Assembly (NCBI GenBank): GCA_040007615.1
Contig: JBDTUQ010000002.1
Span: 29,427 to 93,426 of the forward strand
Length of the DNA stretch: 64,000 nt
Direction: 5' to 3'
Source: Novosphingobium sp.
GTDB lineage: Bacteria; Pseudomonadota; Alphaproteobacteria; Sphingomonadales; Sphingomonadaceae
The notes beneath the pieces are model-generated. The model ran no database searches, was not told where the DNA came from, and was given only the letters and a program-made list of their open reading frames with translations. Each line of letters opens with the position of its first letter. Position 1 is the first letter of the stretch. The position numbers and the translations under genes are program-made. Positions 9,001 through 30,086 of the stretch are shown piece after piece.

Positions 9001-12000
9001 TCGATGGTCGCGGCCAGCGGCACTGTGAGTACCACGACCTGCTGGTTCGAGGTGACGTTGCGCACGGTGATGCGTTCCGACATGCCTGCCGTCGTGGCGA
9101 GGTTGCCCGCGTTTGTCGTCTGCCAGTGCACCGTCACCGTGTCGCCCGGCTGCCAGCCCTCGGCGGGTTCCGGCACGACATTACCGACGGTCAGGTCGAT
9201 GACCGGGGCAAGCGTGGAGACAACCGCAACGCTGGCGCTGTTGTTATTCTCGCCCGTACCGGCAAGATTCGCTTCGGAAATCGTGTTGGCAACGTCACTG
9301 GTGACAGTGAAGCTGATATTGCCAGTGCCGCGATTGCCGGTTGGCAGGGTCACGGTGGTCTGGCGTTGACGCTCTGCCCCGGCGGCCAGCGGGCCGGCGG
9401 TATCGGCGATCAGGATATTGCCGATGATCTCGTTGGTATCGGTATTGCGGACGATAATCCGGTCCGTCCAGCTCGCCGCCGTCGGCAAGGTGCCGCTGTT
9501 GGTGGTCTTCCAGCTCAGGGTTACGGTGCTGCCCGACTGAATCTGGCCCACAGACGAAACCGCCAGCGCGGTCGGCGCAAGATCGGGTGAGGGCACATAT
9601 TGCAGCGATGAGATGATTACGGGCGACTGGATCGTGTTTTCGAACACGTTGAACGTGTAAGTGCCTATCGCATTGTCATAGGCGATGTAGCCATCGATGA
9701 TCAGGGTATAAGTCCCCGCATCGGCGAGCGTCATCGTATCGACATCGCTGTTGAAATCCGAATGGAACAGCTGCTGCCCGTTGGGACCGATCAGCCGCCA
9801 GGTTGAGTTGACCCCGCTCTGTGCCTGCTGGTCGAAGAAGAACCGCTCACCCGCTGTCGCGTTAAAGCGGTAGAACTTGGCCTCGGACCCGGGGCTAAGC
9901 GTGCCACTGACGGGAACACCCGGCGTGATCGGCGTGGCGTTGGCCATGTCGGACACGCGGATAGAGAACGGTCGCGCGGCCGCGCTATTGTTGGTGACGC
10001 GCAAGGTATAGGCGCCTGCGGGCAGAACCAGCACGGGCGAAGGACCGTAGTTCCACGAATCCGATGCGTTGAAATTGCGCGTGTCGACGGTGCCCTGTGG
10101 CCCCGACAACGACCACGAAACGTCGCCGTAATTGTTGAGCGCATCGACAAAAATCTGGGTCGGCCCGGCCAGCGTGAACGTCAATAGTTCTGACTGTCGC
10201 GGCTGATCAAGCGAGCCGGTAAACGTCTGTCCCAGCGTCAGCGTCGCAGTCTTGTCAACGATGCGGCTGACTTTGAAGGCATAGTCCACGACGGGCACAG
10301 GCTCATCCACCCGGCCATCGAACAGCAGCGTATATGTGCCTGTGCGCGGCAGCGTGACCGGGCCGACATCGGTCTGGTAACTGTTGTAGAACACCAGTTT
10401 GCCGGTCGGGTCCAGCAGCCGCCACGTGCCATATCCGGTAGTGCTGAGGTAATCGAAGAACATCCGGTCGCCCTGCGCGCCGGTAAAGCTGTAGACCGCG
10501 TTTGCGTTGCCGGGATTGAGCGTTCCGGTCGTCTGGCTGTCAATTGGCAGCGGGGCCGCAGAGGCGAGGTCGAGCAAACGGAAGGCGAAGTTGCCAGTCT
10601 GATCTGCGTCGGCGTCGATGGTCAGGGTGTAGCTGCCCTGCGGCGCATAGATCACTTCCGCGTCGGGGCGGTTGAACGCATCGCTGCGCGCAAAATCGCG
10701 CGAGTCCAGCGTTCCGGTCGGGCCGGTAAGCGTCCAGTTGAAGCTGGCGTTGTTGAGCAGGCTGTCGAACAGCAGGCGGCTGTTCTGAGCAAGCGAGAAC
10801 GAATAGCGCGTGCGGTCGCCCGGGTTGGTGATCGTGCCGCTGGTGGTCGCGCCAATGGTCAGCGCTGCAGCTGTATCGACCATCGTGTCGACCGCAAAAG
10901 TAAGCGTCTGCGGTGCGCCGGACCAGATCCGGCCTTCGACCAGCAGCGTATAAGTGCCATCGATGGGCAGGGCCGGCGCTTCGATGTCATAGCGCCCATA
11001 GTTAGGCCCGAATACGACATTGCCAGTCGGGTCGATCAGCCGCCAATAAGGCTCGCCCGAGCCGCTAATGGCATCGAAATAGACCTTCTGCCCGGCGCTG
11101 GCTGTGAACTTGTACATCGCCGTCGCATTGCCCGGGTTTAGCGTTAGCGTGATGGGCTGGCCGGATATGACATCCTGCGCCGATGACAGCGCCGCAACCC
11201 GGAAGGCATAGCTGCCGGTGCTCTGAGCGTTGGCTGAGATGATGACATTGTAAGTGCCCGGTTGCAGCACCATGACCGGGTTGCCGCCGTTTTCGGCAGA
11301 GTCGGTCTGGGTAAAAACATGCAGCCCGCCCGTTTGGGTTGGCCCAACGATCTGCCAGCGCAGTTCGCCGTTATTGGTCAGTGCATCGAAGATGACCGGG
11401 GTAGGTTGGGTGACGGTGAACGCATAGCGGTCTGCCGCGCCCGCCACCGCGATGGTTCCGGTCTGGGTAGCATCGAGCGTCAGGGGCGGAGTAGCCGCCG
11501 CTGCCGCCGTCATCGCCACGCTGACGTTGTCAACGTCCTGATCGCCGATCGATCCGCCCTGATAGCCGGACAGCAGCACGCGACCGGCCTCAAGCTCCAT
11601 GCCGCCGATAAAGAAATTGCTTGTCGCCGTCACCGCGCTCCCGCCGGTGGGCGTCAGTTCAATTGTCAGTAGCGTCCCGCCGGTGGTGCGCGTCAGCAAC
11701 ACCCGTGCGTGGGCCCAGGCGCCAGAGGCGAGCGTGATGCCGGGATTGGCGATCTCACCGATCTTGACGCCGTTGTAGTGAATCGAGATGTGGTTGCCGT
11801 TGACTTCGCCGTTGTTGAACGTGTCGAACCCAAGGCCCAGCGCGCCGGGGACGTTGGCCTCTACCCCCACTTGCGGGCCGGGGCCGGAAATCCCGTATTG
11901 CGCCACGGGCAGGAAGGCAAAGCTGATGCCGTCCGGGTCGGTCGTCGCGCCGGGCTGGCGGGTGATGCGGAAGTCAAAGCCCAGGTCGACACTGTCCTGC

Positions 12001-15000
12001 CGTCCGGTGCCGGTGGCCGAGAATACGACACTGTTCTGCAGGTTGGAATGCAGCACATCGGTAAGGCGGACGAAATTGCCGCCCGTACCGGTGAGGACTT
12101 GCGCCGCCGCGCCGAAATGATTGACGAGCACGTAGGGCAGTCCGGCGCTGTCGAAAGTCTGCGCCGTCTGTCCATTCGCAGGCACGGCAACCGGCTGGTC
12201 AAAGCGGAAGCCGTAGTTGACGTCGCCGTTGTTATAGATGCGCCCTTCGACCAGTAGCTTGTACGTGCCGGTCATGGTCGCCGTCAGCAGGCCGGTGTCT
12301 GCGGGCGAGGATGGCCCGAAAACCACCTGGCCCAGCGGATCGATCAGCCGCCAGCGCAAGTCACCCGAAGGCTGCTGCGTGATCGAAAAGCCGAAGCGCG
12401 TCCCTTGCGTCACGTCGAACTTGTAGGTCGCCGTCTCGCGCCCTGCCTGCGCTATCGTGCGGTTAAGCGTGCCGCCAGGGCTGAGCACTTCTGCCGCGCC
12501 CAGATCGAGCAGGCGGAAATCGTAGGTTCCCGTCGTGTCGCCGCCGATGTCGACTGTCAGCACCCAATCACCCGCCACAAGATTGAGCACCGGATTAGGG
12601 CCAAAATCTGCGCTGTCAGTGGAATAGAAATTGCGGCTATTCACCACCATGCCGCCGGGGCCAGTCAGCGTCCAGTTGAACTGCTGCGCGGCCGAAAGCG
12701 CATCGAACACCAGTTGCGAAGGCTGCGCCAGAGTGAACGAATAACGGTCGCTTTCGCCGGGCTTGGCAATCGAGCCCGCCACATGCAAGCCGAGCGTGAG
12801 GGGAGTGGTCGTCTGACCGCCCTCACTATAAACGGCAAAGCTGTATCCAGCTTGTGACCCCTGATGAACACGACCTTCCAGTAGCAGGGTATATGTGCCC
12901 GCGCGGTCGAGCGTAATGCCATCTATGTCGTTGATCCCGGTCGGGCCGAACACCGTCTTGCCTGATGGATCGAGCAGCCGCCAATAGACTTCCGACTGCA
13001 CAGCCAAGGCATCGAAATAAAACTTCTCCCCCGCTTGGGCATTGAATTTATAGGCATTGGTCAGCTTGGCCGGATCGAGTGCCACAGTAACCGGTGTGCC
13101 GAGCATCAGCGGGGTTGCCGCCGCCAGATCGGTCAGGCGGAAGTTGTAATTGCCGGTGCCGTCGCCGCTGCCGCTGACTTTTAGCGTGTAGGTGCCTGCC
13201 GCCAGATTCATCGCCGGGGTAGGGCCGAAGTCGATGGAATCGCTCTGGTCGAAACGACGTTTGGTGACGACATCCCCGTCAACACCGGTCAGCGTCCACA
13301 GCAGTCCGCCATTGTTCGTTTCGGAATCAAAATAGACGCTCGTGGCTGCCGCCAGCGTGAAGGTGTAGAGTTTTTCCTCACCCGCATGGCTGATCTTGCC
13401 GGTCACGCCGTTGGGATTCATGGCGTGGAGAATGGCACCGCCCGGCAGCGTGGCGCTTTCGAAATCCATCGCATAGAGCAGGCCTGCCGTGCCCGTGGGC
13501 GAAGGCGCATTCATGTCGGCGGCGATCTGTGCGGCAGTGCGTGCGGTGCCCCACATTTGCACGGTATCAATCGCGCCTTCGATCGAGCCGATATCGGTGC
13601 GCGCATGGGGATACATGCCGAACAGCAGCGGATCGCTGTTCACGATATTGTCGTTGGTGCGGATCGTGGCGGAGGCCTTTTCCACCCCGTTGACGAAGAT
13701 CTTCTGCGTTCCCGCCGTCCGGTCAACCACGGCGGCGATATGCACCCACTGGCCGAAGGTAAAGGCACCCGCAGTCGTGCTGACACCCTGATTACCAGAG
13801 GTATCGCCGGTGAGGAAATTGATCTGCCCATCCGAACCGAGCGATATGTGGTACGGCACCTTCTGGGTATCGGCATCGCCTTTGGTCGCCAGCACGACAT
13901 AATTGTCGGTCATCCGGTCGAGCCGATACCAGCCTTCCAGCGTAAAATCGCGCTGCGGGGCGGGGGCGACAGCGTTTGGAACTTCGACGTATTCCACGCC
14001 GCTCAGGCTCAGCGCATTGCCGTTGCGACCGGGCTCTACATGCGGTTGCTGAGGGTTGATGCCGTCGAGGGTGATCGCCGTGGGCGCACCGTTGACACCG
14101 GCCAGGTAGAAGGCAAGGCGGTAGTCGATCGGCCAGTCGCGCCACGCACGACTTTCCACCAGCAGCGTGTAGGTGCCGCCAATGGCCAGCACGCCGGTGT
14201 CGATGTCTCCGAAGGTGACCGGCCCGGTGACCTGCCGCCCATAAGGATCAATCAGCCGCAGCGAAATGCGGTCACCCGGCGCACTGATGGCCTGCCCGTC
14301 AATGAACACTCGCTGCCCAGCGGTGACGTCAAAGCGGTAGGCATGGTTCTCACGCCCCCCTGCAATTGTCGCGGAAAGGGCCGTGTCAAGCGTGACTTTC
14401 GGCGCTGTCGCCAGATCGAGAAACCGGAACGCGAACGTGCCCGTGGCCGCGCTGTTGCCATCGACAGTAACTGTGTATTGCCCCGCCTGTGCAGTGAATA
14501 CGGGGTTTTCGCCGCCCAGTTCGAAACTGTCGCCATTGCGCAAGTTGCGGGTGATCGAAAGCCCGCCCGGGCCGGTCAGCGTGACGTTGATCTGGTCGTT
14601 ATCGTAAAGCGCGTCGAATTCCAGAGTCGTCGGCGCGGCGAGGGTAAAGGTATAGGTTCGCTTGTCACCCGGTACCGCCAGTCGACCCTCGACCGTGCCG
14701 GGCAGACCAGCAAAATCGCGCAGGACGGATGCGCTGCCGCCGCTTACCGTTTCAGGAGTGGTGCCGCCTGAAAGACTGTCAAACGGGAGCCGTGCGACGA
14801 GGCCAGTGGCATTCGCTGGCGGGCCGTTCATCATGTCGGTCTGAATATCTGCGGCGGACCGCGCGCCGTGCCAGACGCGCACTTCATCCAGCGCGCCCTC
14901 AAGGCGGCCAAGGCTGTCGTCTGTTTCGATGGTGCCGCTGATGTAGAGCGGGCTATCGGCCTGACCGTAGGCCTGCGTACCGCTGACAGTGCGAGATGCT

Positions 15001-18000
15001 GCAAGTTGCCCGTTGAGGTAGATTTTCTCCGTGCCCGCCGTCCGGTCAAGCACCGCTGCCACGTGGGTCCACTGGCCAAAGGCGACGGATCCGCTGGCGG
15101 TCTGTAGATATTCGTCACCCGATGTGCTCTGGCTGGAGAGCAGGACAGACTGGTTCGCATTGAACCAGACGCTGTACGTGCGCTGGCTGGAGTCCGTGCC
15201 CTTGTAGACGATCGGCACCCAGGTATCGTGCGCTCGGTCGGGATTTATCCAGAACTCCACGGTCACCTGATCGCGGATATCCAGCGCAGGGTTGTTCAGC
15301 TTGACCTGTTCTGTGCCCGTAAGCGCGATGGCGTTGCCGACTTGTCCGGTGCGTAGTGACGACTGGCCGGTCGACCCGGTGATGTCGATGGCCTGCACCG
15401 TGGAATTGGAGCGATAGAGCGCGAACGTATAAGGCCACGTCGCCGTCCCGTCCCACACACGTCCTTCGACCAGTACGGTGTAGGTCCCGGTTTGCCCGGC
15501 GGTGAACTCTGTGTTCTGGAAACCTGTGGGGTTGGCGATCTGGTGCCCGGCAGGGTCGATGATCCGCAGCGAGGCATAAGGCAGGCCTTGCCTGACCTGC
15601 AGGAACACCTGGTCGCCAACAGTGGCGGTGAACTGATAGCTGTCCGTCTCGTTAGCAGGGGTCAGCGCGGCACTGACCGGCGTGGCATAAGAGATAGGCT
15701 GCGCGGCGGCCATGTCGAGCAGGCGGAAGCTGGCCGGACCGGTGGCGCCGTTGTTGCCCGTGATCTTGACTGTGTAATCACCCGCCGCCAGCGCGAACAC
15801 GCGGTCGCCATAATCCTCGAAGGAGTCAGTGTAATAGAACTGGTCTGAGCGCACCACGCCTGACGGGCCAGTGATCGTCCAGGTCAGGTTAGTATCAGGC
15901 GTCATCGAATCGAAATAGAACTTGCCTGACTGGGCAAGGGTGAACGTGTAGATGCCGGTTTCGCCCGGCCGCGCAAGGCTGGCTGCAACGGTCTGCCCCA
16001 CGGTCATGGCGATCGGTGCAGGATCGACGGGCCGGTCAAGGATAAACGAATAGGTGCGCTGAGGGGTCGTGTCCCACGGGCGACCTTCCACCAGCAGCGT
16101 ATACCGCCCGGTGAAGGCGGTGGTGAAGCTGGTATTGGCAAAGTCCAGCGCGCCGCTGGCATCGCGTCCGAACGGATCGAGCACGCGGATACTGGCATAG
16201 CCCGGAGCCTGCACAGAACTGAACGAGAACTTGTCGCCTGCAGTCGCCTGGAAAGTAAAAATGTCGGTTTCGGAAGCAGGCAGCAACGTGCCGCTGACCG
16301 TCGCTCCCGCAGCGGGGAGCAGCTGGGCGGATGCTGCGTCTAGCAGGCGGAACGAATAGGCTCCGGTTGCCCCGTTGTTGCTACTGACGGTGAATTCGTA
16401 ATCGCCCGGCGCGACGAGAAAGCTGGACGGGGCGCTGCGCTCGTAACTGTCTGAATTGCGGAAGTTGCCAGACGCAGAAACGCCCGCTCCCTGCATTGAC
16501 CAGTTGATCTGGCTGTTGTCAGTCAGGCTGTCGAACTGGATCGTCGTCGGCGCGGTGACGGTCAGTTTGTATCGCTGCTTGTCGCCAGCACCGGCAATCG
16601 AGCCATCGACTTGCGTGTTTGCCGAAATCGTTATGGGCGCGGGGTTCTGCGCGCGGTTAATCCTGAAGCCGATGTCGTCACTGCCGCCGTTATAGACGCG
16701 CCCTTCGATCAGCACGGTATAAGTGCTGGTCGCGGGCAGAGTGAAGGGCAGTGTGTAAAGGCTGGTCGGTCCGATCAGCATCCGGCCCGAGGAATCGAGC
16801 AAGCGGAACGCGAAATCGGCGTAATTGTTCAGCGTGAACCAGACTGTATCATCCTTGGTGCCAGTGAACGAATAGGCCAGCGTCGATGAATTGGGGTTGA
16901 GAACGCCATCAACCTGGGTGTTGGCAGTGGATACCGGCGTGGCATTCGCCAGATCGAGCATCCGGAACGAATAGGCCCCCGCCGATCCGGTGACTCGGAT
17001 CTGGTAAGTTCCCGCGACGGGCAAAACCAGGGCATTGTTGCCGCCGACTTCCCAGGCGTCGCTGTAATAGAAAGCGCGTGAAGCTTCCTGACCGCGCGGG
17101 CCGACCAATGCCCACGACTTGCCGCCGTCAGGGGTGAAGGAATCGAAATAGAGCGTCGTCGGCGTAGCGGTGGTGAAGGTGTAGAGTTTGGTATCGCCTG
17201 AACCCGCAAGCGTACCTGAAACTGTCGCGCCCAGGCTGAGCGCGGTGCCCTGCGACAAATCGGCAGGGGCGACAAATCCGGTCTTGTGGACCTTGAAACT
17301 GTAGTTGCGCGGGGTGCCGTCCCATACCCGGCCTTCGATCAGCAGGGTATAGGCGCCGGTCATCGTGATGGGCAGTGGATAGTCGCTGCCGAAATAGTCC
17401 TCGGCAACCTCGCGCCCGGTGGGATCGAGCAGGCGCCAGAACAGGTTGTCAGAGTTGCGCCCGACAACGCGCTCAAGCTGGATGACATCACCCGCCTGCG
17501 CATTGAAGGTGTAGGTATCCGTCTCGTTAGAGGGCTGCGTCTGCCCTAAAACCTCGGTGTCGAGCGCGACTGGCACGGCGCTGCCCATATCGAGCATGCG
17601 AAAGGCATAGGCCGCAGCGGTGACTATGGTGCTGTCAATCGTCAGTTCGTAATTGCCTGCGGGCAGATCAAGCACGCCGGGTCCGTAGAGTTCCGGGCCA
17701 TCGGAATAATAGAACGTGCGGCTGTTGATTTCCACACCGCGCGGACCGGTCAGCGTCCAGTTGAGGCTGCCGTCCGGCGTCTGGCTATCGAACACCAGCT
17801 TGCGTGCGGTGGCCAGCGTGAAGGTGTACTTGTCATGCTGCCCACGACCCAGAGTTGCGCTGACCGTGGTGCCGAGCACAAGCGCGGCGGTATTGTCCAC
17901 CAGATTGCTGACGGCATACTGAAAGGTAGACGGTCCACCGTCGTAAATCCGGCCTTCTACGGCGATCAGATAGTCGCCGGTCTGCGGCAGGTTGCGCAGT

Positions 18001-19961
18001 TCCAGGTCGGAAATATGCGCTGGCCCCTTCAGAACAGTGCCATCCGGATTATAGACGCGGACGCTGATTTCGTCGCCAACCTGGCTCTTAAGTTCAAAAT
18101 AAAGCCCGGAGCCAGCGGTAGCCGAAACGCGGTATAGGCGCGTCTCAGTGGCGGGCGTGCTGGTGACGGTGGCGGCAAGACCACTTGGCGAAAGATCGGC
18201 GCTGCTGGCTCCATTCTGCTCGTCAAAGCGCCAGTAGCCAACAATCCCGGCCTGCGCCGCGCTGAGCGGGGAGGCGAAGGCAGCCGACAATTCCGCTGCC
18301 GTGCGCGTGACGTTCCATACGCGCACTTCGTCGATCATGCCGTTAAACAGGTATGATCCCGCCGGAGAGGCACCGATCGCCAGCGCGCCACTACTCTGGT
18401 TGATCGGCGCGGAATAAGCCTGCTGGGCTACCTGCTGGCCATTGATGAACAGCCGCAGCGTGCTGCCGTCATATGTGCCAGAAACATGCTCCCACACGCC
18501 GGTGGGCAGCGGCGCTTCTACATAGGCGCCGTTCCAGTTGTTGACGAAGAACCGCACGTTGCCGCCAACACGGATCAGGCCATAGCCATCGCTCCAGCCG
18601 GTGTCGGTCGTCTTGGTGACGATGCCCTGGTAATAATTGCCAGACTGTGGGTTTATCCAAGCCTCCAGCGTCAGGTTGGCCGGGCGGAGCGCCGCGTCAT
18701 CAGGCACCGAAAGGCTGCCGAGCACATTGACGTCCCACGCGCGGTTGGTCATGCCCGGAAGACCGGAATAATCCATCGGAGCACCGGCAGGACGCTGTCC
18801 GGCCTGAGCCAGCCCGGCATTGCCAAGCGTGGCTGAAAAATTGTCGCCGGGATTGACGGTTGTTGCCAGCGCGCTGTCGATCAGGCGGAAGGCAAACGGT
18901 CCGGCGCGGTCATAATCGGCGTAGACCGTCAGCTTGTAACTACCCGCTGCCAGATCGAGCAGAGGATTGCCGTCATAGGAATCGCTCGACAGGAAATCAC
19001 GTCTCGAAACCACAGTCCCGCGCGGACCGGTGAGGGTCCAGTGGAATGAAGACCGGTTAAGCAGCGTATCGAATAGCAACCGACTGTCGCTTGCCAGATC
19101 GAACGAATAAGTCACCGTACTGCCGGGGCCGGAGATGGAATCCATCACCGTTTGACCAATTGATAAACTGGCCTGCGTGTTGGTTACGCGATCGACGCTG
19201 AAACTGTAATCAAAGGGAGAATTGTTATAGACCCTGCCTTCCACGGCCACCGTATAAGTGCCGCCCTTGTTCAACTGAAAAGGGCCGGAATCGCTGAATC
19301 CGGTTGGCCCGCTGACCAGTTCGCCGTCCGGGCCGATCAGCCGCCAGCTTACCGATTGGCCTGAAAGCTGCTGGGTATCGAAGAAGAAGCTCTCGCCCGC
19401 GGCCACGTCGAATGCGTAAAGATCCGTCTCGCGACCGGCATTGTGCGCGCTTACCGTCTGCCCCAGCGCGATGTGATCGGCATTGGCAAGGTCGAGCAGG
19501 CGGAAATCATAGGCCCCTGTGGTACTGGCATCGCCGTCCACGCTCAGGGTATAAGTGCCGATCTGCAGGTCCAGCACATTGGACCCGCCGATGTCATAGC
19601 CGTCCGACCCCGCCAGCGAGCGGTTGGCAACTACATTGCCGTTTGGTCCGGCCAGCGACCATTTGATCGAGGAGTTGGCGGTCAGCGAGTCGAACGCGAT
19701 TTTCTTGGGTTCGGTAAGGGTGAATGAGAATTGATCAGTCTCACCCGGAACGTCGATTGCGCCTGAAACGGGGGGCGTATCTGCAGACAGCAACAGCCGT
19801 GGTTCAAGCGACTCGATGGCGAGTCGGCTAGACAGAATGGTCGAATTGCGCAGGGCAGCGCGGCGGTTAGTCTGCCATGCTTCACCCAGCGCAGCGAGGC
19901 GGGGAAAACGCAAACGACGGGGATCGTTCGATTTCGCAGTAAGTCGCGCGTCGTGGAACAC
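1..19961 (-). CDS. Giant LEPR-XLL-motif extracellular/adhesin-like protein, >6,650 aa, C-terminus beyond the left window edge
   Basis: The minus frame with first codon base = 2 mod 3 reads VFHDARLTAK...SRLAIESLEPRLLLSADT near 19961-19780 and, in the same frame, VEAPDGSILISGGANRGTIW at 59-1. The intermediate segments I translated are all coherent in this frame. No ORF-track minus ORF within 1-19961 uses this frame, consistent with no internal stop. GTG at 19961 has a GGGGGA RBS-like motif; the nearest upstream in-frame stop is at ~20055. Confidence 0.93.
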   Translation of the reverse strand, partial: MFHDARLTAKSNDPRRLRFPRLAALGEAWQTNRRAALRNSTILSSRLAIESLEPRLLLSADTPPVSGAIDVPGETDQFSFTLTEPKKIAFDSLTANSSIKWSLAGPNGNVVANRSLAGSDGYDIGGSNVLDLQIGTYTLSVDGDASTTGAYDFRLLDLANADHIALGQTVSAHNAGRETDLYAFDVAAGESFFFDTQQLSGQSVSWRLIGPDGELVSGPTGFSDSGPFQLNKGGTYTVAVEGRVYNNSPFDYSFSVDRVTNTQASLSIGQTVMDSISGPGSTVTYSFDLASDSRLLFDTLLNRSSFHWTLTGPRGTVVSRRDFLSSDSYDGNPLLDLAAGSYKLTVYADYDRAGPFAFRLIDSALATTVNPGDNFSATLGNAGLAQAGQRPAGAPMDYSGLPGMTNRAWDVNVLGSLSVPDDAALRPANLTLEAWINPQSGNYYQGIVTKTTDTGWSDGYGLIRVGGNVRFFVNNWNGAYVEAPLPTGVWEHVSGTYDGSTLRLFINGQQVAQQAYSAPINQSSGALAIGASPAGSYLFNGMIDEVRVWNVTRTAAELSAAFASPLSAAQAGIVGYWRFDEQNGASSADLSPSGLAATVTSTPATETRLYRVSATAGSGLYFELKSQVGDEISVRVYNPDGTVLKGPAHISDLELRNLPQTGDYLIAVEGRIYDGGPSTFQYAVSNLVDNTAALVLGTTVSATLGRGQHDKYTFTLATARKLVFDSQTPDGSLNWTLTGPRGVEINSRTFYYSDGPELYGPGVLDLPAGNYELTIDSTIVTAAAYAFRMLDMGSAVPVALDTEVLGQTQPSNETDTYTFNAQAGDVIQLERVVGRNSDNLFWRLLDPTGREVAEDYFGSDYPLPITMTGAYTLLIEGRVWDGTPRNYSFKVHKTGFVAPADLSQGTALSLGATVSGTLAGSGDTKLYTFTTATPTTLYFDSFTPDGGKSWALVGPRGQEASRAFYYSDAWEVGGNNALVLPVAGTYQIRVTGSAGAYSFRMLDLANATPVSTANTQVDGVLNPNSSTLAYSFTGTKDDTVWFTLNNYADFAFRLLDSSGRMLIGPTSLYTLPFTLPATSTYTVLIEGRVYNGGSDDIGFRINRAQNPAPITISANTQVDGSIAGAGDKQRYKLTVTAPTTIQFDSLTDNSQINWSMQGAGVSASGNFRNSDSYERSAPSSFLVAPGDYEFTVSSNNGATGAYSFRLLDAASAQLLPAAGATVSGTLLPASETDIFTFQATAGDKFSFSSVQAPGYASIRVLDPFGRDASGALDFANTSFTTAFTGRYTLLVEGRPWDTTPQRTYSFILDRPVDPAPIAMTVGQTVAASLARPGETGIYTFTLAQSGKFYFDSMTPDTNLTWTITGPSGVVRSDQFYYTDSFEDYGDRVFALAAGDYTVKITGNNGATGPASFRLLDMAAAQPISYATPVSAALTPANETDSYQFTATVGDQVFLQVRQGLPYASLRIIDPAGHQIANPTGFQNTEFTAGQTGTYTVLVEGRVWDGTATWPYTFALYRSNSTVQAIDITGSTGQSSLRTGQVGNAIALTGTEQVKLNNPALDIRDQVTVEFWINPDRAHDTWVPIVYKGTDSSQRTYSVWFNANQSVLLSSQSTSGDEYLQTASGSVAFGQWTHVAAVLDRTAGTEKIYLNGQLAASRTVSGTQAYGQADSPLYISGTIETDDSLGRLEGALDEVRVWHGARSAADIQTDMMNGPPANATGLVARLPFDSLSGGTTPETVSGGSASVLRDFAGLPGTVEGRLAVPGDKRTYTFTLAAPTTLEFDALYDNDQINVTLTGPGGLSITRNLRNGDSFELGGENPVFTAQAGQYTVTVDGNSAATGTFAFRFLDLATAPKVTLDTALSATIAGGRENHAYRFDVTAGQRVFIDGQAISAPGDRISLRLIDPYGRQVTGPVTFGDIDTGVLAIGGTYTLLVESRAWRDWPIDYRLAFYLAGVNGAPTAITLDGINPQQPHVEPGRNGNALSLSGVEYVEVPNAVAPAPQRDFTLEGWYRLDRMTDNYVVLATKGDADTQKVPYHISLGSDGQINFLTGDTSGNQGVSTTAGAFTFGQWVHIAAVVDRTAGTQKIFVNGVEKASATIRTNDNIVNSDPLLFGMYPHARTDIGSIEGAIDTVQMWGTARTAAQIAADMNAPSPTGTAGLLYAMDFESATLPGGAILHAMNPNGVTGKISHAGEEKLYTFTLAAATSVYFDSETNNGGLLWTLTGVDGDVVTKRRFDQSDSIDFGPTPAMNLAAGTYTLKVSGSGDGTGNYNFRLTDLAAATPLMLGTPVTVALDPAKLTNAYKFNAQAGEKFYFDALAVQSEVYWRLLDPSGKTVFGPTGINDIDGITLDRAGTYTLLLEGRVHQGSQAGYSFAVYSEGGQTTTPLTLGLHVAGSIAKPGESDRYSFTLAQPSQLVFDALSAAQQFNWTLTGPGGMVVNSRNFYSTDSADFGPNPVLNLVAGDWVLTVDIGGDTTGTYDFRLLDLGAAEVLSPGGTLNRTIAQAGRETATYKFDVTQGTRFGFSITQQPSGDLRWRLIDPLGQVVFGPSSPADTGLLTATMTGTYKLLVEGRIYNNGDVNYGFRFDQPVAVPANGQTAQTFDSAGLPYVLVNHFGAAAQVLTGTGGNFVRLTDVLHSNLQNSVVFSATGTGRQDSVDLGFDFRITRQPGATTDPDGISFAFLPVAQYGISGPGPQVGVEANVPGALGLGFDTFNNGEVNGNHISIHYNGVKIGEIANPGITLASGAWAHARVLLTRTTGGTLLTIELTPTGGSAVTATSNFFIGGMELEAGRVLLSGYQGGSIGDQDVDNVSVAMTAAAAATPPLTLDATQTGTIAVAGAADRYAFTVTQPTPVIFDALTNNGELRWQIVGPTQTGGLHVFTQTDSAENGGNPVMVLQPGTYNVIISANAQSTGSYAFRVAALSSAQDVISGQPITLTLNPGNATAMYKFTASAGQKVYFDAISGSGEPYWRLIDPTGNVVFGPNYGRYDIEAPALPIDGTYTLLVEGRIWSGAPQTLTFAVDTMVDTAAALTIGATTSGTITNPGDRTRYSFSLAQNSRLLFDSLLNNASFNWTLTGPTGTLDSRDFARSDAFNRPDAEVIYAPQGSYTLTIDADADQTGNFAFRLLDLASAAPLPIDSQTTGTLNPGNANAVYSFTGAQGDRMFFDYLSTTGYGTWRLLDPTGKLVFYNSYQTDVGPVTLPRTGTYTLLFDGRVDEPVPVVDYAFKVSRIVDKTATLTLGQTFTGSLDQPRQSELLTFTLAGPTQIFVDALNNYGDVSWSLSGPQGTVDTRNFNASDSWNYGPSPVLVLPAGAYTLRVTNNSAAARPFSIRVSDMANATPITPGVPVSGTLSPGSEAKFYRFNATAGERFFFDQQAQSGVNSTWRLIGPNGQQLFHSDFNSDVDTMTLADAGTYTLIIDGYIAYDNAIGTYTFNVFENTIQSPVIISSLQYVPSPDLAPTALAVSSVGQIQSGSTVTLSWKTTNSGTLPTAASWTDRIIVRNTDTNEIIGNILIADTAGPLAAGAERQRQTTVTLPTGNRGTGNISFTVTSDVANTISEANLAGTGENNNSASVAVVSTLAPVIDLTVGNVVPEPAEGWQPGDTVTVHWQTTNAGNLATTAGMSERITVRNVTSNQQVVVLTVPLAATIDAGATVDRSATITWPAGLSAFGSFDFTVTTDILDEIVEANDAGTGETNNASTTSVTSAPDLQIRNFAIATANPSAGDTVTLNWDEANTGNAATAGGWTNRVLVENIDTGAVILDLSVPTGTALAAGQQRSRTFAFALPQGQKAVGNVRVTLVVDSDVGGAAGTVREVVSGINAEANNAASAGVTVAARNYPDLQVTGVTAPSNASGGDTITVNWNVINAGNTGTGSGWSDRVVLSSDAVFGNADDFVLGNFANNGPLAVGGQYAGTASVVLPSNIAGNYRVYVVADPAFAIIEPDTRADNVGAPAVIALSSQAPNLVAEAVFGPADPVAGGQPFNVSWRVRNTGTLAAPGGHIDRLVLSADGIYDSGDLVLGEVVRSGALAPGDSYSVAFDARVQDGRTGSFRLILVTDAGQTVFENLQEADNAGVSAPITLAPAPSANLVVDSVTVPADAIAGQTVAVTYVVRNAGTVTASAPWTDTIYFDTDTTVSGSRNLASVSRTFALAPGDSYTVTQNVTLPTDYADGDTLILVRADSSSQVFEAGQEADNDGASAVLALTHPDLTVSALAGPVGGTAQSGSTFDVNWTVRNNGSGATAAGWTDTVWLSRDGVIGAGDIKLGTVTALGSLAAGATRDVTLSVTLPIDAQGAYKLIVRTDDADVVAETVGEGNNTSAIDLTVGLAPYADLDVSNVTAPSRKIADPAHVTVGWKVTNSGTGAGITSSWTDSVIVSADDVFGNGDDVVLGQLVHSGGLALGASYDASLDLILPPGFYGHYTLFVRSDSKGEVFENGADGNRGFLTGPFDVSPILWADLVVNTVVTPDSGASGTDLAVTWTVANQGIGLTNVAEWFDIVWLEKTDGTGRIKLGAVNHLGFLATGDSYQRSASFRLPDGISGNYRVVVEAPGSSNPGSGPYEFIYGDNNTATSAPISVSLSPPPDLKVTSISAPTNGTEGQVVDIQWTVQNDGTSDANGSWVDKVYLRKVGDTGAGTLIGTYSYTGPLQAGTSYSRKEEMRLPLHTSDQYEIVVVTDADNSVYEYTSEGNNRLVDDSAILVATLPRPDLRVSNVVAPVHVSAGATASIEFTVTNQGLVAANGVWNDRVYLSLDDKLTSDDILVSSLVNQSALGSLEEYTSASGTFTVPKRFRGTVYILTQVDAGNAVDEWPNDTIASNVTVTPIYVDPIPFADLVVDSVAVPTQAFEGNTVSVNYTVTNRGSGTSDLGAWTEQIWLTRDKNRPHPGQGDILLTSLQYTGGPLVVGQGYDRVLTVTLPDHVISGTYYITPWVDPFGTLLEDPLVTNINPDDPAELNSSNYRARAIQIVGTPAAAQTTRAISVESVTADASAKGGDNFAFSWTVKAGGDSTADGWSDQVYLADAPLLENATKVFALGTFDNLKPLDPGQSYTNSASVRLNVAAEGKYIIVRSSLAGDTNTLDNQKFTSTLVTNAVADLTVVSVVPSAPASPAYSGEKTSISYTVRNDGADVWSGTQYWQDQVWISKDPSFIAGRAQLVATVNQPGNGLKSGASYSNTAQFALPPGVEGQYYVYVFTNVVGNVGTSFLPSSGDNSDLNAAFQRAAYELPQGNMGQGTFPVVYREPDLKVTALTMPNTFQAGQTYTISFKVENVGNRDTREDSWTDRLYLSLDPSLDEGDWLMSQETSPGVVVKAENVHTGGLKAGQSYIATATVTVPFELHGSFNVIAVADSGLGESGFSTSSLSSRLRGVRGSAAGAVREFQGEGNNTTAGAVTILPYSAPNLQVTSLTAPARAVKGQSFTVQYTVTNSGGVTPALQGSWDDLVYLSRDPFLDLTSDRFVGSFTHSGGLAAGGSYDVNLNLALPGDLGTQAYYVFVVTDPVRYDTTGKVFETNERDNTLGSTDRMIIDLPPPTDIQITDIVVPDNKQPGDPVTISWTVKNTSTVTASGSWSDGVYLSSDAAWDIGDRLLGRGDFSGTLLPDGTYTLSLTTTLPGASPGNYRVIVRADVRNQLNEDTGESNNTTASPSALSVSVPTLTLNIPTTVNLKAGEERLYAIQVPAGQTLRLRVGDDDARAINEVFLRHDAVPTSAAFDATYTGPLSQELTAIVPDTQPGVYYVLVRGYSGSQEGSQLTLLADLMPLVITDIKTDTGGDGKFVTTTIKGGQFKPGAIIKVSRPGIAEYEPVAWKVVDSTTIIATFDFTDAPHGLYDVKIINPDGSTTIEPYRFLIERGIEPEVTIGVGGPRVILAGDQATYSVALQNLSNLDAPYTYFQVGVPELNNNQYVYGLPFLNFFTNVRGTPDGAAGSANAAVPWSGLESVTNVNGQLTTSGFLYDEPADGFGGFSINILTYPGLKAMADRAFETFRAQMAARFPELDSVLAQGEGALAAWWEAAKNKIEDSVPGSKSVLDGLDFVGLYKQNAAIPSKDEIPFIPFRFHILAAATTMTRAEFVAFQTKQALDLRTAILASSSAPPSLLALAASQTDWVNLYLASLETAGLLRPDGAIPPIRTQTQIVSLMATLASGILFGPAGSEIRSTGDLPGFFDQLRTLYGNQDGLMAPIEFMDPRESDRYVGEIPVPALPKFADYNLALAASTYFESVRIFVPWLDFALRGSGLPADFQVNGPEPVDGSEFAALDFSRFYSGQGNVGRLASITGPQTLDTQGWLPNQTTLPYSVGFENAAGSARWVNEVRIVTDLDPSLDPRSFSFGDIKIGDITIKVPDGKTSFSTEIDFSKTRGFILRVSAVLDMYQSPARASWVLQAIDPLTGEVLEDATRGLLAPNNAAGIGAGFVNYSVKPKDTVATGDRIGASARVIMTGFAPEDTTVLTQTIDATAPSSHITATRIAATNDFAIDWNVTDDNTGSGVKHVTLYVAENGGDFKIWQRMVPQASGSLVFTGEPGKTYEFLALATDVAGNREVPKAGVNAVDDGSKVSLGGVPSVPDTTAPNFGQPPEPTVVPSTNALFTAAEANIPAAVALSGASEFDAVLTPFTGRAFATGIGQSDGGIGPMAIVEAPDGSILISGGANRGTI
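3000..9590 (-). repeat. Array of ~17 CARDB-like Ig-fold repeats (~125 aa each)
   Basis: (P/A)(D/N)Lx(V/I) starts at ~9585, 9195, 8822, 8425, 8055, 7685, 7325, 6953, 6575, 6197, 5828, 5452, ~5020 (degenerate), 4667, 4222, 3750 and 3357. Units typically contain V-x-W-T-V-x-N-x-G, W-x-D-x-(V/I)-x-L-S and E-x-N-N motifs. Confidence 0.85.
9620..19770 (-). repeat. Protein-level array of 12 diverged ~205-aa two-part beta-sandwich repeats (PPC-like), with lectin-fold inserts
   Basis: A mid-unit motif of the F-R-L-L-D-L type occurs at ~19500, 18885, 17600, 16960, 16345, 15720, 14425, 13135, 12510, 11200, 10575 and 9955. Most units also carry WTLTGP, WRL(I/L)DPxG and (V/I)EGR motifs. Confidence 0.85.
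19779..19814 (-). other. LEPR-XLL motif (ESLEPRLLLSAD), around residues 50-61 of the giant protein
   Basis: Direct translation. It matches the LEPRxLL / planctomycete-extracellular N-terminal motif of giant proteins. Confidence 0.9.
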
Positions 19962-20100
19962 GATGATCCCCCAGTCTTGCAGCAGGCAAGTCTTGTCAGC
20001 ATGAAAGGTGGCGTCCGGCGAGCGTGCCCAGCCGCTGGCCCCCAGTCCTCCCTAATCAATACGTGATTATTGTTGCCAAACAAAGCTAATTTCAAGTGCT

Positions 20101-20137: not shown

Positions 20138-20221
20138 GAATTATCTTTTCCCATTCTGGGGCACCAAATGGTGATTGGTTCTTTACCCTTTGCTTGATGC
20201 GTGGCATTGACTGATGCCGAC

Positions 20222-21166
20222 ATGGATCGACGATTTGCTTTGACGATCGGGGGAGGGGCTCTGGCGGTGGCTGCGGCGATTGCTTTTGCATATTCCGGCG
20301 ATGATGATGGCGGGCCGGTGCGCGAAGAGCGGCCGAAGCCCATTGCCGCCGTGCAGGCCGTGCAACATCTCGATCGCCCTACAGCTGCGGTGACCCCACC
20401 GGGCCTTGATCCCGCCCGTCCGACTGATTGCCTGATAGAACCAAGTCAGGTGGTGAAGGTTAACAGCGGGGTCGAAGGCGTGATCGCGGCGATTTATGTA
20501 GACCGGGGCGATGTGGTCCATCGCGGCCAGGTCGTGGCCCAGTTGCGGGCCGATGTTGATCAGGCCAGCCTTGCCGCCGCGCAGGCCAAGGCGGGCAACG
20601 TCTATACCGAACGCGCCGCCGCCAGCCGCGCTGTCTATCTCGATGCCGTGCGCAAGCGTAGCGAACAGATCGGCCAGTACCTTGCGCGTGATAATGTCGA
20701 GGAAGCGCAGGCCAACGCCCGCGCCGCTGCTGAGGAACGCAATGCCGCCCAACAGGAACGCCGCGTGGCGCAGCTGGAATCGGTGCAGCACAGCCGCATA
20801 CTTGGCGAAAAGACCGTGCGCAGCCCAGTCAACGGCATCGTTACCGAACGCGCCATGTCGCCCGGCGAGTATCGCGGGTCAGACGCTTCGCATATCCTGA
20901 CCGTGGCGCAAGTCGATCCACTGAACGTCGAAGTATTCGCACCGATTGCCCAGCTTGGCTCGGTCTCGATTGGCCAGTCGGTCAAGATATTTCCCGAACA
21001 GCCGGTTGGCGGCGAATACGTGGCCCGGATCAAGGTGATTGACCGGGTGTTCGATGCGGCCAGTGGCACGTTTGGAATGCGTCTGGAATTGCCTAATCCC
21101 GGTAATCGCCTGCCTGCGGGGCTGCGATGCCGGATCGAAATCGGGACCGCGCACAAAGGGGGCTAA
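20222..21166 (+). CDS. HlyD/RND-family periplasmic adaptor (membrane fusion protein)
   Basis: N-terminal TM segment, lipoyl-like hairpin (GVIAAIYVDRGDVVHRGQVVAQL ... VRSPVNGIV), helical hairpin, and a beta-barrel with DRVFDAASGTF...LPAG. ATG 20222 preferred over GTG 20201. Confidence 0.92.
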   Translation: MDRRFALTIGGGALAVAAAIAFAYSGDDDGGPVREERPKPIAAVQAVQHLDRPTAAVTPPGLDPARPTDCLIEPSQVVKVNSGVEGVIAAIYVDRGDVVHRGQVVAQLRADVDQASLAAAQAKAGNVYTERAAASRAVYLDAVRKRSEQIGQYLARDNVEEAQANARAAAEERNAAQQERRVAQLESVQHSRILGEKTVRSPVNGIVTERAMSPGEYRGSDASHILTVAQVDPLNVEVFAPIAQLGSVSIGQSVKIFPEQPVGGEYVARIKVIDRVFDAASGTFGMRLELPNPGNRLPAGLRCRIEIGTAHKGG

Positions 21167-21168
21167 TC

Positions 21169-22755
21169 GTGTATTCTGACAGGGGAACCATCAGGCCAGC
21201 CGCACTTCAACGCCGCCTAGGGCTAACTGTTTCGGGCGCTTTGGGCATGTGCCTGGCGCTCATCTCATCCGCGCAGGCAACGACCATGCAGGAGGCGCTG
21301 GAAGCCGCCTATCAAAACAATCCAAAACTTACCGCGCAGCGCGCCAACGTGCGCGTTGCCGACGAAAACGTGCCCATCGCCCGCGCCGCCTCCATGCCGG
21401 TGATCGACGGCACGGTCAGCTATCAGGAAAACATCCTGAAGGGTGACAACCCGCCGGGCGGCTTCGTCTCCGATCCTGACCGGCAACTGGTTGGCCAGAT
21501 CAACGCCACGCTTCCGCTGATCACATTCGGGGTCAACAAGTGGGGAGTCGCCGCCGCAGACGAGCGGGTCAAAGCCAGCCGTTATGGCCTGCGCGGCGGC
21601 GAGGCGGATCTGTTTACCGCCGTAGTCGGCGCTTATATGGATGTTATCCGCGACGAGGCCGTAGTCCGCCTGAACCAGCGTAACACCCAAGTCATCGGCT
21701 TCAACCTTCAAGAAACGACAGACCGCTACAAGGCCGGCAATCGCGGCCCAGCCGATGTCGCGCAGTCAGAAGCGCGGCTGTCGCTGGCACAGGCGCAATC
21801 GGAAACCGCGCAGTCAAAGCTGATTACCAGCCGGGAATCGTTCATCCAGCTTGTCGGCAGTGAACCCGGCGTCCTCGCCCCGCCGCCGCCTTTGCCCGAA
21901 CTGCCAACCGATCCCAACGTCGCGGTCGAATATGCGCTCCAGAACAATCCCAATATCCTGGCGGCCATGTCGCAGCGGATTGCCCTGTCTGATGATGTCC
22001 GCGTGGCCGATGGTGAGCGCAAGCCCCGGCTTGAGGCGCGGGCGTCGCTCAACCACTACGATTATCTGAACTCGCTCGCTCCCGGCACCGGGCCGCGCAA
22101 TGGGGACCGGGGTACCACGGCGAACGTCGGCGTGGCGCTGCGGGTGCCGCTCTTTTCCGGCGGCAGGCTGTCCGCGCTCTACCGTCAGGCAGTAGAGAAG
22201 GAAGGCGTTGGCGTCGAACAAGTGGTGGAGGCACAGCGCACGGTCGTTGCGCAGACCCGCTCTGCCTTTGCCACCTGGGTTGCGGCGCAGCGCGTGATCG
22301 CTGCTGCCGAACGCGGCGCGGCCGCCAACCAGCGAGCACTTCAGGCGCTTGGCGCGCAAGTTGATGCTGGTGTGCGCCCCTTGCTCGACAAGCTGAACGC
22401 CGAGCAGGAATTGCTAAACTCGCAAGTCACGCTGGTGACTGCGCGGCGCGACGCTTATGTCGCGGGCTTCGCATTATTGGCAGCGATGGGCCGGGCCGAG
22501 GCCAAGGATCTCAACTTCGAATCCAGCCGCCTCTATGATCCAACTGTCCATTACGACAAGGTGCGCAACCAGATATTCCAGTTAAGCGACCAGCCGGTCC
22601 CTGCCGCGAAGGCGCAGGGCACCAGCGGCACCCGGCCACAGGACGCGCAGGTTACTCCAGCTGACGGCGGCGTCAGCGACCCGGCGCTGTCGATCCGCAG
22701 CGATGCTTCCCCAGCAGCCGCTCCCGGTGGTCAGATAGCAGTTTCAAAGCCTTGA
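21169..22755 (+). CDS. TolC-family outer membrane efflux/type I secretion protein
   Basis: Signal peptide, then TMQEALEAAYQNNPKLTAQRA, VPLFSGG and LDKLNAEQELLNSQ motifs. GTG start lies 2 nt after the adaptor stop. Confidence 0.92.
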   Translation: MYSDRGTIRPAALQRRLGLTVSGALGMCLALISSAQATTMQEALEAAYQNNPKLTAQRANVRVADENVPIARAASMPVIDGTVSYQENILKGDNPPGGFVSDPDRQLVGQINATLPLITFGVNKWGVAAADERVKASRYGLRGGEADLFTAVVGAYMDVIRDEAVVRLNQRNTQVIGFNLQETTDRYKAGNRGPADVAQSEARLSLAQAQSETAQSKLITSRESFIQLVGSEPGVLAPPPPLPELPTDPNVAVEYALQNNPNILAAMSQRIALSDDVRVADGERKPRLEARASLNHYDYLNSLAPGTGPRNGDRGTTANVGVALRVPLFSGGRLSALYRQAVEKEGVGVEQVVEAQRTVVAQTRSAFATWVAAQRVIAAAERGAAANQRALQALGAQVDAGVRPLLDKLNAEQELLNSQVTLVTARRDAYVAGFALLAAMGRAEAKDLNFESSRLYDPTVHYDKVRNQIFQLSDQPVPAAKAQGTSGTRPQDAQVTPADGGVSDPALSIRSDASPAAAPGGQIAVSKP

Positions 22756-29121: not shown

Positions 29122-30086
29122 ACATTCATCCCGCCAACCTTTCCGGCCATGATGCCGCGTGGCACGAATGGCGCACGGCGATGGCTTCTGACCGGATGCA
29201 CCACGGCTGGATTCTGGCCGGCAAGCGCGGGCTGGGCAAAGCCGCCTTCGCCCTTGCCGCCGCGCGCGAACTGGTGGCCGAACCCGGCGTTCCGCAGCCC
29301 GAACTGCACGCTGACGTGATCGTCCTCGAACGCCAGCCGCAAAACGATGAGGAAGAGAAAAAGCGCGCCGACGGCAAGCCGTTCCAGCTGAAACGCAACA
29401 TCTCGGTCGATCAGGTCCGCCGTATGCAGCACCGCCTGTTTACCCGTCCGACGCTGGGCGCACGCCGCGTTATCATCATCGACCCGGCGGACGACATGGA
29501 GAAGGGCGCAGTCAATGCCCTGCTCAAAAGCCTGGAGGAACCGCCGTCTGGAACGTTTTTCCTGCTGGTGGCGCACAGCCCCGGACGCCTGCTGGCGACG
29601 ATCCGCTCGCGCTGCCGGATGCTGCGCTTTCCCAACCTTTCCGACGCAGAGATCGACACGCTGTTGATCCGCGAAGCACCGCAAGCGGACGCCGCAACCC
29701 GCGCGGCCGCCATCGCCGCCGCCGAAGGATCGCCCGGCACGGCGCTCGGTTTTGTCGAGCACGAGCTGGGCACGCTGCACGCCCTCATGCTGCGCCTGAT
29801 TGCCGAGGGGGACGAGCATTTCATGCTGCGTGGCGCGCTGGCAGGAGCAATCGGCCTTCGCCCAGACCGTGAACGCCAGTTGGCCACGCTGGACCTTGCC
29901 CGCGCGGTGCTGGCCGCCGATCTGGCAGGCGCAATACCCGCCAAGCAGGCCCGCATTATCGAGGCTCACGCGGCCCTGGCCCAGCTTTCCGCCTCCGCGC
30001 CGACTGCCAACTTTGACCCTGGCCTGCTGGCGATGGAAATTGGCGGGTTGCTGGCCAGTGCCGCGATGCCTAGAGAAGCAGCCTGA
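29118..30086 (+). CDS. holB: DNA polymerase III delta-prime subunit
   Basis: GKRGLGK, ISVDQVR, NALLKSLEEPP and TIRSRC motifs; located after tmk. Confidence 0.92.
   Translation: MNIHPANLSGHDAAWHEWRTAMASDRMHHGWILAGKRGLGKAAFALAAARELVAEPGVPQPELHADVIVLERQPQNDEEEKKRADGKPFQLKRNISVDQVRRMQHRLFTRPTLGARRVIIIDPADDMEKGAVNALLKSLEEPPSGTFFLLVAHSPGRLLATIRSRCRMLRFPNLSDAEIDTLLIREAPQADAATRAAAIAAAEGSPGTALGFVEHELGTLHALMLRLIAEGDEHFMLRGALAGAIGLRPDRERQLATLDLARAVLAADLAGAIPAKQARIIEAHAALAQLSASAPTANFDPGLLAMEIGGLLASAAMPREAA

Follow-up and report, generated by a model that had tools for sequence, protein, structure and literature searches.

Studholme et al. (2004, as cited in PMC8567305) put forward an N-terminal motif of planctomycete proteins, RRLxxExLExRxLLA, as an export signal; and in T. 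immobilis, whose 52 motif proteins include 8 of its 10 longest proteins, the proteins bearing that motif fractionate with the envelope (PMC8567305). LEPR-XLL is the proteobacterial form of the same motif. In Vibrio it occurs on a protein of ~8,000 amino acids (aa) whose C-terminal part has RTX and serralysin domains, such as are typical for type I secretion (PMC10868602), and LEPRxLL N-termini are likewise carried by the symbiosis proteins of Chl. chlorochromatii, of 36,806 and 20,647 aa, which giants are made, leave the cell, and are transferred to the partner cell, a recently acquired secA being co-expressed with them (bioRxiv 10.64898/2026.03.19.712371). How giant proteins with either form of the motif cross the envelope is a question that has stood since the 2004 export-signal proposal. 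Here we analyse the 61-residue leader that forms the N-terminal start of a 12,385-aa adhesin-type protein in a Sphingomonadaceae genome. The leader is encoded on the minus strand at 19779..19961 of a stretch of 64,000 nucleotides (nt) from Novosphingobium sp. (assembly GCA_040007615.1, contig JBDTUQ010000002.1, forward-strand positions 29,427 to 93,426), which whole stretch we refer to as the window; positions preceded by C2 are those of the contig.

Two further systems are close to the one considered here. Kamneva, Poudel and Ward (2015; PMC4452313) described a conserved 'secondary SecA_DEAD + Peptidase_M50/HlyD + GAF/HlyD + HlyD' locus, which according to those authors is also carried by Methylobacterium extorquens AM1, and for which they named no substrate or signal and stated the role to be unknown. 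Daptide leaders, for their part, contain the motif ELExMEAP and are removed by an RRE domain (the recognition element of peptides that are made by the ribosome and modified after translation, RiPPs) that is fused to a site-2 protease (bioRxiv 10.1101/2023.03.08.531785). Our literature searches found no paper linking the LEPR-XLL motif to the cassette of Kamneva et al. The interpretation of the leader given below rediscovers a published export-signal hypothesis, and what we add is the cassette context, in the light of which we hold it to be fairly probable, from the sequences compared, that the 61 residues are the LEPR-XLL-type leader of an adhesin-like surface protein and serve as the address tag of the flanking SecA/RRE-M50/adaptor/TolC cassette. 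The locus constitutes a compact case, with one substrate and one complete candidate cassette in a genome of 2.3 Mb; and since near-identical loci exist in the cultured strains Sphingopyxis granuli NBRC 100800, Sphingopyxis panaciterrulae DSM 27163, Sphingobium indicum BiD32 and Pseudooceanicola batsensis HTCC2597, the export question is directly testable.

The leader, its reading frame and its motif family

Translation of the minus strand from the GTG at 19961 down to 19779 yields the 61 residues MFHDARLTAKSNDPRRLRFPRLAALGEAWQTNRRAALRNSTILSSRLAIESLEPRLLLSAD, exactly as quoted in the original prediction. The protein that they open (C2:49387..12230) has a mass of 1,297 kDa (1.3 MDa), a pI of 4.5, and no cysteine in its 12,385 aa; its reading frame extends past the start of the window, which holds the first 6,653 codons (1..19961, minus strand), and continues to C2:12230. 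The domains recognized in that protein are PPC-like repeats from aa 65, LamG, CARDB, He_PIG, Big_9, cadherin-like, PKD, OmpA-like and cohesin. That the first structural repeat would start right after the residues SAD, as had been proposed, agrees with 11 internal BLASTP alignments, in all of which the repeat unit begins at residues 64-66, i.e., 3-5 residues past D61; the leader itself had no other match when aligned with the rest of the protein.

The frame of the leader is closed by an in-frame TAG (20052..20054, minus strand) at 31 codons upstream of the GTG, because of which a longer N-terminus with a hidden signal peptide is ruled out; a real Sec or Tat (twin-arginine translocation) signal upstream, one of the findings that would have spoken against the original prediction, is thus impossible. 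The GTG at 19961 is the earliest ATG, GTG or TTG past that stop, is preceded at a distance of 5 nt by the Shine-Dalgarno-like GGGGGA (19967..19972, minus strand, as read from the sequence), and lies 46 codons before the motif, at which same distance an ATG is found in four Sphingomonadales orthologues; in two further orthologues the ATG stands 41-42 codons before the motif. Between the two starts that had been left to choose from, the GTG is therefore the one backed by orthologues and by a Shine-Dalgarno-like sequence, whereas the CTG, located at 20045 and not at ~20046 as given earlier, is an unlikely start: it directly abuts a GGGAGGA, which is the wrong spacing, and the orthologues begin 41-46 codons before the motif. 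If used, the CTG would in any case bring no hydrophobic stretch. We also rejected the TTG at codon 17, which has neither a Shine-Dalgarno sequence nor orthologue support. The GGGAGGA just mentioned (20046-20052, minus strand) is a strong Shine-Dalgarno-like sequence situated directly after the in-frame stop, ~85 nt upstream of the GTG, and has no canonical start codon at a proper distance. Further upstream, in the divergent intergenic region, the sequence TTGAAA-18-AATAAT (20066..20095, minus strand) resembles a sigma-70 promoter, as a consensus match only.

Arginine accounts for 10 of the 61 residues (16.4%, versus 3.8% in the whole giant protein) and the net charge is +5, so that the leader was rightly described as Arg-rich. 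Its maximum Kyte-Doolittle mean over 15 residues is 0.68, or 0.81 with the frame extended to the TAG, as compared with values of 1.75-2.99 at the N-terminal ends of six envelope proteins that the window also encodes; nowhere in this hydropathy scan does the leader present a Sec h-region, i.e., some 10-15 hydrophobic residues after a basic n-region. The Tat pattern, [ST]RRx-hydrophobic-hydrophobic, is not matched in the leader either: the only loose RRxΦΦ match is RRAAL, with no hydrophobic stretch behind it, no h-region was seen behind the RR pairs of the leader, and PRRLRF, tried as a Tat motif, was rejected on the same pattern and hydropathy scan. As to a lipoprotein signal, there is no Cys for a lipobox in the leader or anywhere in the giant protein. 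The leader is N-terminal and is neither a Sec nor a Tat signal, as had been anticipated on both counts.

The segment IESLEPRLLLSAD matches the NCBIfam model NF012209 (LEPR-8K, 'LEPR-XLL domain'), which spans 24 positions and has a curated cut-off of 17 bits, at aa 47-68 with 27.8 bits when the 120-aa N-terminus was searched and with 29.7 bits in a six-frame search of the genome, where the match falls at C2:49181-49249 (window 19755-19823); the motif is present once in the giant protein. Its core, L47-D61 (LAIESLEPRLLLSAD; 19779..19823, minus strand), contains E50, E53 and R55 at the invariant positions, and is preceded by a variable basic N-region, aa 1-46 (19824..19961, minus strand), which charge, hydropathy and the alignment of 25 leaders described below delimit and which includes a semi-conserved R-R-A-A-L-R-N-S-x-I-L-S-S-R. 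Pfam PF07595 (Planc_extracel) scores 17.9 bits at aa 46-61 (E 0.0025), under its gathering score of 25.5, which sub-threshold match would represent the same motif in a different lineage flavour. Judged by sequence, the leader motif belongs to an already catalogued family and is not a new motif.

The anatomy of that family was examined in 31 LEPR loci from cassette-related genomes, 25 non-redundant leaders of which were aligned with the motif as the anchor. In all 31 loci the frame closes at 24-107 codons upstream, so that the motif is always N-terminal. Throughout these loci the leader, counted to the Asp, has a median length of 61 aa (range 33-77) and a median net charge of +5, and its highest hydropathy over 15 residues, with a median of 0.67, goes beyond 1.23 in none of them. 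In the alignment E(-3), E(0) and R(+2) never vary; a conservation of 84-96% is seen at L(-1), P(+1), L(+4), L(+5), S(+6), A(+7) and D(+8); and past D(+8) conservation collapses and different domains come next. The resulting architecture is that of a variable basic stretch followed by the invariant core Phi-E-x-L-E-P-R-Phi-L-L-S-A-D, to which the leaders of the Sphingomonadales add a shared second block upstream, R-(R/K)-A-A-L-R-x-S-S-I-L-S-S-R.

The flanking cassette and its association with the motif

Immediately downstream of the giant gene, on the same strand and in this order, lie the genes for a DUF3467 protein, a GAF-HlyD adaptor, a protein of 717 aa that combines an M50 and an HlyD domain (hereafter the fusion), and a 673-aa SecA paralogue. 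On the other side of the giant gene, on the plus strand, we find a divergent HlyD-type periplasmic adaptor of 321 aa (20201..21166; Pfam HlyD_D23 and HlyD_3, TIGR01730 above cut-off) and a TolC-family outer-membrane channel of 542 aa (21127..22755; Pfam OEP with E 1.7e-51, TIGR01844 type_I_sec_TolC with 242 bits against a cut-off of 225). The short SecA_DEAD, the M50/HlyD, the GAF/HlyD and the further HlyD genes by which Kamneva et al. defined their cassette thus all adjoin the giant gene.

Motif and cassette also occur together in other genomes. When 44 genomes of the Alpha-, Beta- and Gammaproteobacteria were picked solely for encoding the fusion, 40 of them gave an NF012209 match, mostly on frames of ~12,000 aa; and where the motif-bearing frame and the fusion gene shared one contig (32 cases), the two lay at most 5 kb apart in 25 and on the same strand in 30, the usual gap, of 1.9-3.3 kb, corresponding to DUF3467 plus GAF-HlyD. 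Of 401 genomes sampled evenly from the phylum, 57 had the motif and 97 the fusion family, with both in 53, the motif only in 4—all four being weak matches or incomplete genomes—the fusion only in 44, and neither in 300 (odds ratio 90, Fisher p 3e-34, which statistics are uncorrected for phylogeny). The distance from motif to fusion was at most 10 kb in 34 of the 39 motif matches of that sample that shared a contig with the fusion. No motif match was obtained in 14 control genomes.

Two side observations came out of these searches. In the phylum sample, lower-scoring paralogues of the fusion (E ~1e-60) often adjoin weak LEPR-like matches, and the fusion family may recognise leader variants too diverged for the 24-position model to pick up. 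In two long-read metagenome-assembled genomes (L033/G078:C9 and L037/G082:C8) the LEPR frames are short, of 903 and 2,141 aa, and situated ~37 kb from the cassette; that distance being the length of one giant gene, these frames look like a giant gene broken by assembly indels.

The fusion is the first candidate for a reader of the leader. Its HELGH and NGNPLLRFDGYY are invariant across 61 homologues of 49-100% identity, HExxH and NxxPxxxxDG being the invariant motifs, and the M50 protease looks active. Residues 18-398 match NF041824, the daptide RRE-dependent intramembrane metalloprotease, with E 2e-39; at 136 bits, however, the match is far under the equivalog cut-off of 300, for which reason the fusion is a relative and not a member of that family. 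PqqD (PF05402) was found in 9 of 12 fusion homologues. Because the C-terminal domain dominates, a Foldseek search with the whole 717-aa AlphaFold2 model (mean predicted local distance difference test, pLDDT, 80.7) returned only membrane-fusion proteins, the last 270 residues resembling a periplasmic adaptor of the MacA/MexA type (E 2e-9), and the N-terminal domain was therefore folded alone. In that model (residues 1-135, pLDDT 77) three strands are followed by three helices (beta3-alpha3), and the best matches among small domains are RRE proteins crystallised with leader peptides, namely the lasso-peptide protein B1 (6jx3_B) and TbiB1 (5v1u/5v1v), with target-normalised TM-scores of 0.67-0.71. 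From the predicted fold and the profile matches of its homologues, we take the fusion to carry a PqqD-like winged helix-turn-helix (RRE) domain of the leader-binding type, which domain is predicted to be cytoplasmic because it is N-terminal to the membrane domain of the fusion.

The second candidate, the short SecA, comprises SecA_DEAD, the preprotein cross-linking domain (PPXD) and a second P-loop domain. It aligns to residues 44-654 of the housekeeping SecA with 38% identity, without the C-terminal ~250 residues that make up the C-terminal third, and keeps both the Walker A sequence TGEGKT and the DEAD box, so that this paralogue is apparently active.

The TGA of the giant gene overlaps the ATG of the DUF3467 gene as ATGA (L002:12230-12233, C2), with a GGAGGA 8 nt upstream; the DUF3467 gene and the downstream cassette are translationally coupled to the giant gene. 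For DUF3467 we found neither a relative of solved structure, nor an NCBIfam model, nor any useful literature, and the protein may be a dedicated chaperone. The locus contains no pump of the ATP-binding cassette (ABC), resistance-nodulation-division or major facilitator type, no C39 domain and no modification enzymes, and no ABC exporter is encoded in C2:1-52,000; three ABC exporters (ABC_membrane genes) are present elsewhere in the genome, on other contigs. On contig C63 a small M50-family gene (a 258-aa frame) lies ~4 kb from an ABC exporter with the ABC_membrane domain (G000:C63:3103-8274), which pair may form a separate peptide-export module. A 176-aa open reading frame after the SecA-like gene (L002:5257-5787) was discarded as spurious, having no family, an odd composition, and an overlap with the next gene. 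Composition gives no island signal, the locus being of 62.6-65.1% G+C as against 62.9% for the genome. Neither the motif nor the full fusion nor the giant gene occurs in any of the 60 closest genomes (same genus and order); and this absence, though the G+C content matches that of the genome, points to the locus (C2:5784-52181) being an island acquired from a donor of similar composition.

Proposed function of the leader and competing explanations

The original prediction had envisaged a non-Sec leader read by a dedicated peptidase or translocase, cleaved or retained. The locus encodes both kinds of protein, in the form of the RRE-M50-HlyD fusion and the SecA paralogue, and across the phylum the motif is found together with the fusion and next to it, so that this idea gains support from the genomic association as well as from the homology to the RRE-dependent daptide leader peptidase; it is probably the cassette proteins that read the LEPR-XLL tag. 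With the leader acting as the address tag of the flanking cassette, the cytoplasmic RRE domain of the fusion would bind the ExLEPRxLL core, by analogy with the binding of RiPP leaders by RRE domains. The short SecA, with its PPXD and ATPase motifs, would then feed in the chain, unfolded and with its N-terminus leading, possibly while translation is still under way; the leader would be removed by the M50 active site in or just after LLLSAD, where the conservation of the family ends; and the three adaptors plus TolC would take the chain through the periplasm and past the outer membrane.

The far end of the giant protein may also bear on the direction of that transit. An OmpA-family peptidoglycan-binding domain at ~aa 10,666-10,748 (29.0 bits versus a cut-off of 27.2), encoded outside the window on the minus strand near the C-terminal end (L122:4946-5192 = C2:17146-17392), suggests that in the periplasm the C-terminal part remains anchored; that domain may tether the tail to the peptidoglycan, which would fit with an N-first export. 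A cohesin domain occupies ~aa 12,032-12,135, with the dockerin-like DADGDGKITLNDL just after it, close to the C-terminus.

In a bolder version, which we advance as a tentative possibility and would not wager on at even terms, the leader would serve as the address tag for a distinct secretion pathway of diderms, as yet without a number, in which an RiPP-type RRE/site-2 protease/adaptor captures the N-termini of megadalton proteins, a motor-only SecA drives them N-first through the adaptors and TolC, and the leader is clipped en route. If true, such a pathway would explain how the largest bacterial proteins exit without Sec, Tat or an ABC exporter, and would cover the planctomycete proteins with the 'extracellular motif' as well as the symbiosis giants of Chlorochromatium.

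Several observations weigh against the reading of the leader as an address tag. Its support consists of association and homology, from which we infer the binding, the cleavage, the direction of export and the inner-membrane channel alike. Several domain assignments for the copy of the fusion in this genome are sub-threshold: that copy does not reach PF05402 at E 0.01 and remains under the Pfam M50 gathering score (23.8 versus 27.2), and the Foldseek E-values for the RRE structures are weak, at 0.03-0.1. Because 44 of the 97 genomes with the fusion family have no NF012209 match, that family may serve other substrates. Finally, planctomycetes have dozens of motif proteins per genome, as in the T. 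immobilis set cited above (PMC8567305), far more than they have cassettes, and the Vibrio giant ends in the RTX and serralysin domains already referred to (PMC10868602).

This last protein leads to a route of the type I kind, in which the giant protein would exit C-terminus first by means of a C-terminal signal and an ABC exporter encoded elsewhere, together with the local adaptors and TolC, and the LEPR-XLL end, trimmed by the M50 protease, would act in the periplasm as a handle for retention or release, in the manner of the N-terminal plug of LapA that is cut by LapG. The HlyD-type adaptors and a TolC of the type_I_sec_TolC subfamily do flank the giant gene, the protein is acidic and cysteine-free like type I substrates, the genome has its three ABC exporters, and the Vibrio example carries C-terminal RTX domains; but neither an ABC exporter nor a C39 domain belongs to the locus, the peptidoglycan-binding domain is near the C-terminus and not the N-terminus, the predicted cytoplasmic location of the RRE fits with a recognition before export and not after, and one conserved member of the cassette is a SecA paralogue possessing a preprotein cross-linking domain. 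A domain search over the full 12,385 aa found no RTX/HemolysinCabind repeats, although an RTX-less C-terminal signal would still be compatible with that result. On balance we regard this route as rather unlikely.

Alternatively, the RRE-M50 protein might recognise the leader for a purpose other than addressing—the licensing of post-translational processing or of quality control, or a regulatory proteolytic switch—with translocation depending on another signal or on the general Sec system. RRE domains are indeed known from peptide maturation systems and not from secretion, a GAF sensor domain is fused to one of the adaptors, and the one paper describing the cassette gives its role as unknown (PMC4452313); against this, the locus lacks modification enzymes, the domain and leader scans recognised no other export signal in the giant protein, and the remaining parts of the cassette, i.e., the SecA-like ATPase, the three adaptors and TolC, are all transport components, which makes such a purpose improbable to our judgment. 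That the leader is a Sec or Tat signal peptide, cryptic or with a misassigned start, or else a functionless Arg-rich stretch arisen by chance, is hardly credible: the sequence LLLSA with the D behind it bears a superficial likeness to a signal-peptide end, and RR pairs do occur in the leader, but the in-frame TAG forbids a longer N-terminus, the hydropathy is far below that of the Sec substrates of the same window, the Tat consensus and the lipobox Cys are missing, and a chance stretch is at odds with a core that is invariant in 25 leaders of the Alpha-, Beta- and Gammaproteobacteria and scores above the curated cut-off of NF012209.

Comparison with known systems

With the proteins collected under NF012209 the leader shares the location at the extreme N-terminus of a very large and repetitive protein, as well as the core ExLEPRxLLSAD, and we see no essential difference between them; that model, though, denotes a motif and not a mechanism. 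The planctomycete RRLxxExLExRxLLA shows the same pattern as the leader (SRLAIESLEPRLLLSA), is equally N-terminal and without a classical signal peptide, and is in both instances placed on the longest proteins of the genome, the difference being that the present host is an alphaproteobacterium with a single such protein and the planctomycetes have dozens. The MetRS of the host comes nearest, with about 70% identity, to sequences from Sphingomonas and Sphingomonadales.

Peptidase-containing ABC transporters, in which a C39 domain acts on double-glycine leaders, follow the same logic in that a short N-terminal leader is recognised and cut off by a peptidase forming part of a tripartite exporter, and the LapA/LapG type of type I secretion shares the export of a giant repetitive adhesin through an adaptor and TolC. 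Both differ from the present locus, which has no ABC transporter, C39 domain, GG motif, RTX repeats or LapG-type dialanine site, and whose motor would be a SecA paralogue. The SecA2 systems of Gram-positives and mycobacteria have in common with it a second SecA dedicated to a few unusual and often very large surface proteins; the short SecA, in contrast, is without the C-terminal helical scaffold and wing region, scores far under all the SecA2 equivalog cut-offs, and belongs to a diderm host in which adaptors and TolC adjoin it and there is no SecY2.

With the locus of Kamneva et al. the present one shares all four gene types, neither of the two having an ABC transporter; here, however, the third adaptor is placed beyond the giant gene, in the company of TolC, and the stop codon of the giant gene is coupled to a DUF3467 gene. 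The daptide peptidase MpaP (NF041824) differs in that its substrate is a short peptide and not a 1.3-MDa protein, and in that the fusion has an extra periplasmic adaptor domain in a locus without modification enzymes; but that peptidase, which is homologous to the fusion over the region noted above, has the same reader architecture, with an N-terminal RRE and a site-2-type metalloprotease, and its leader, like the one described here, carries an acidic and Leu-rich motif (ELExMEAP versus ExLEPR).

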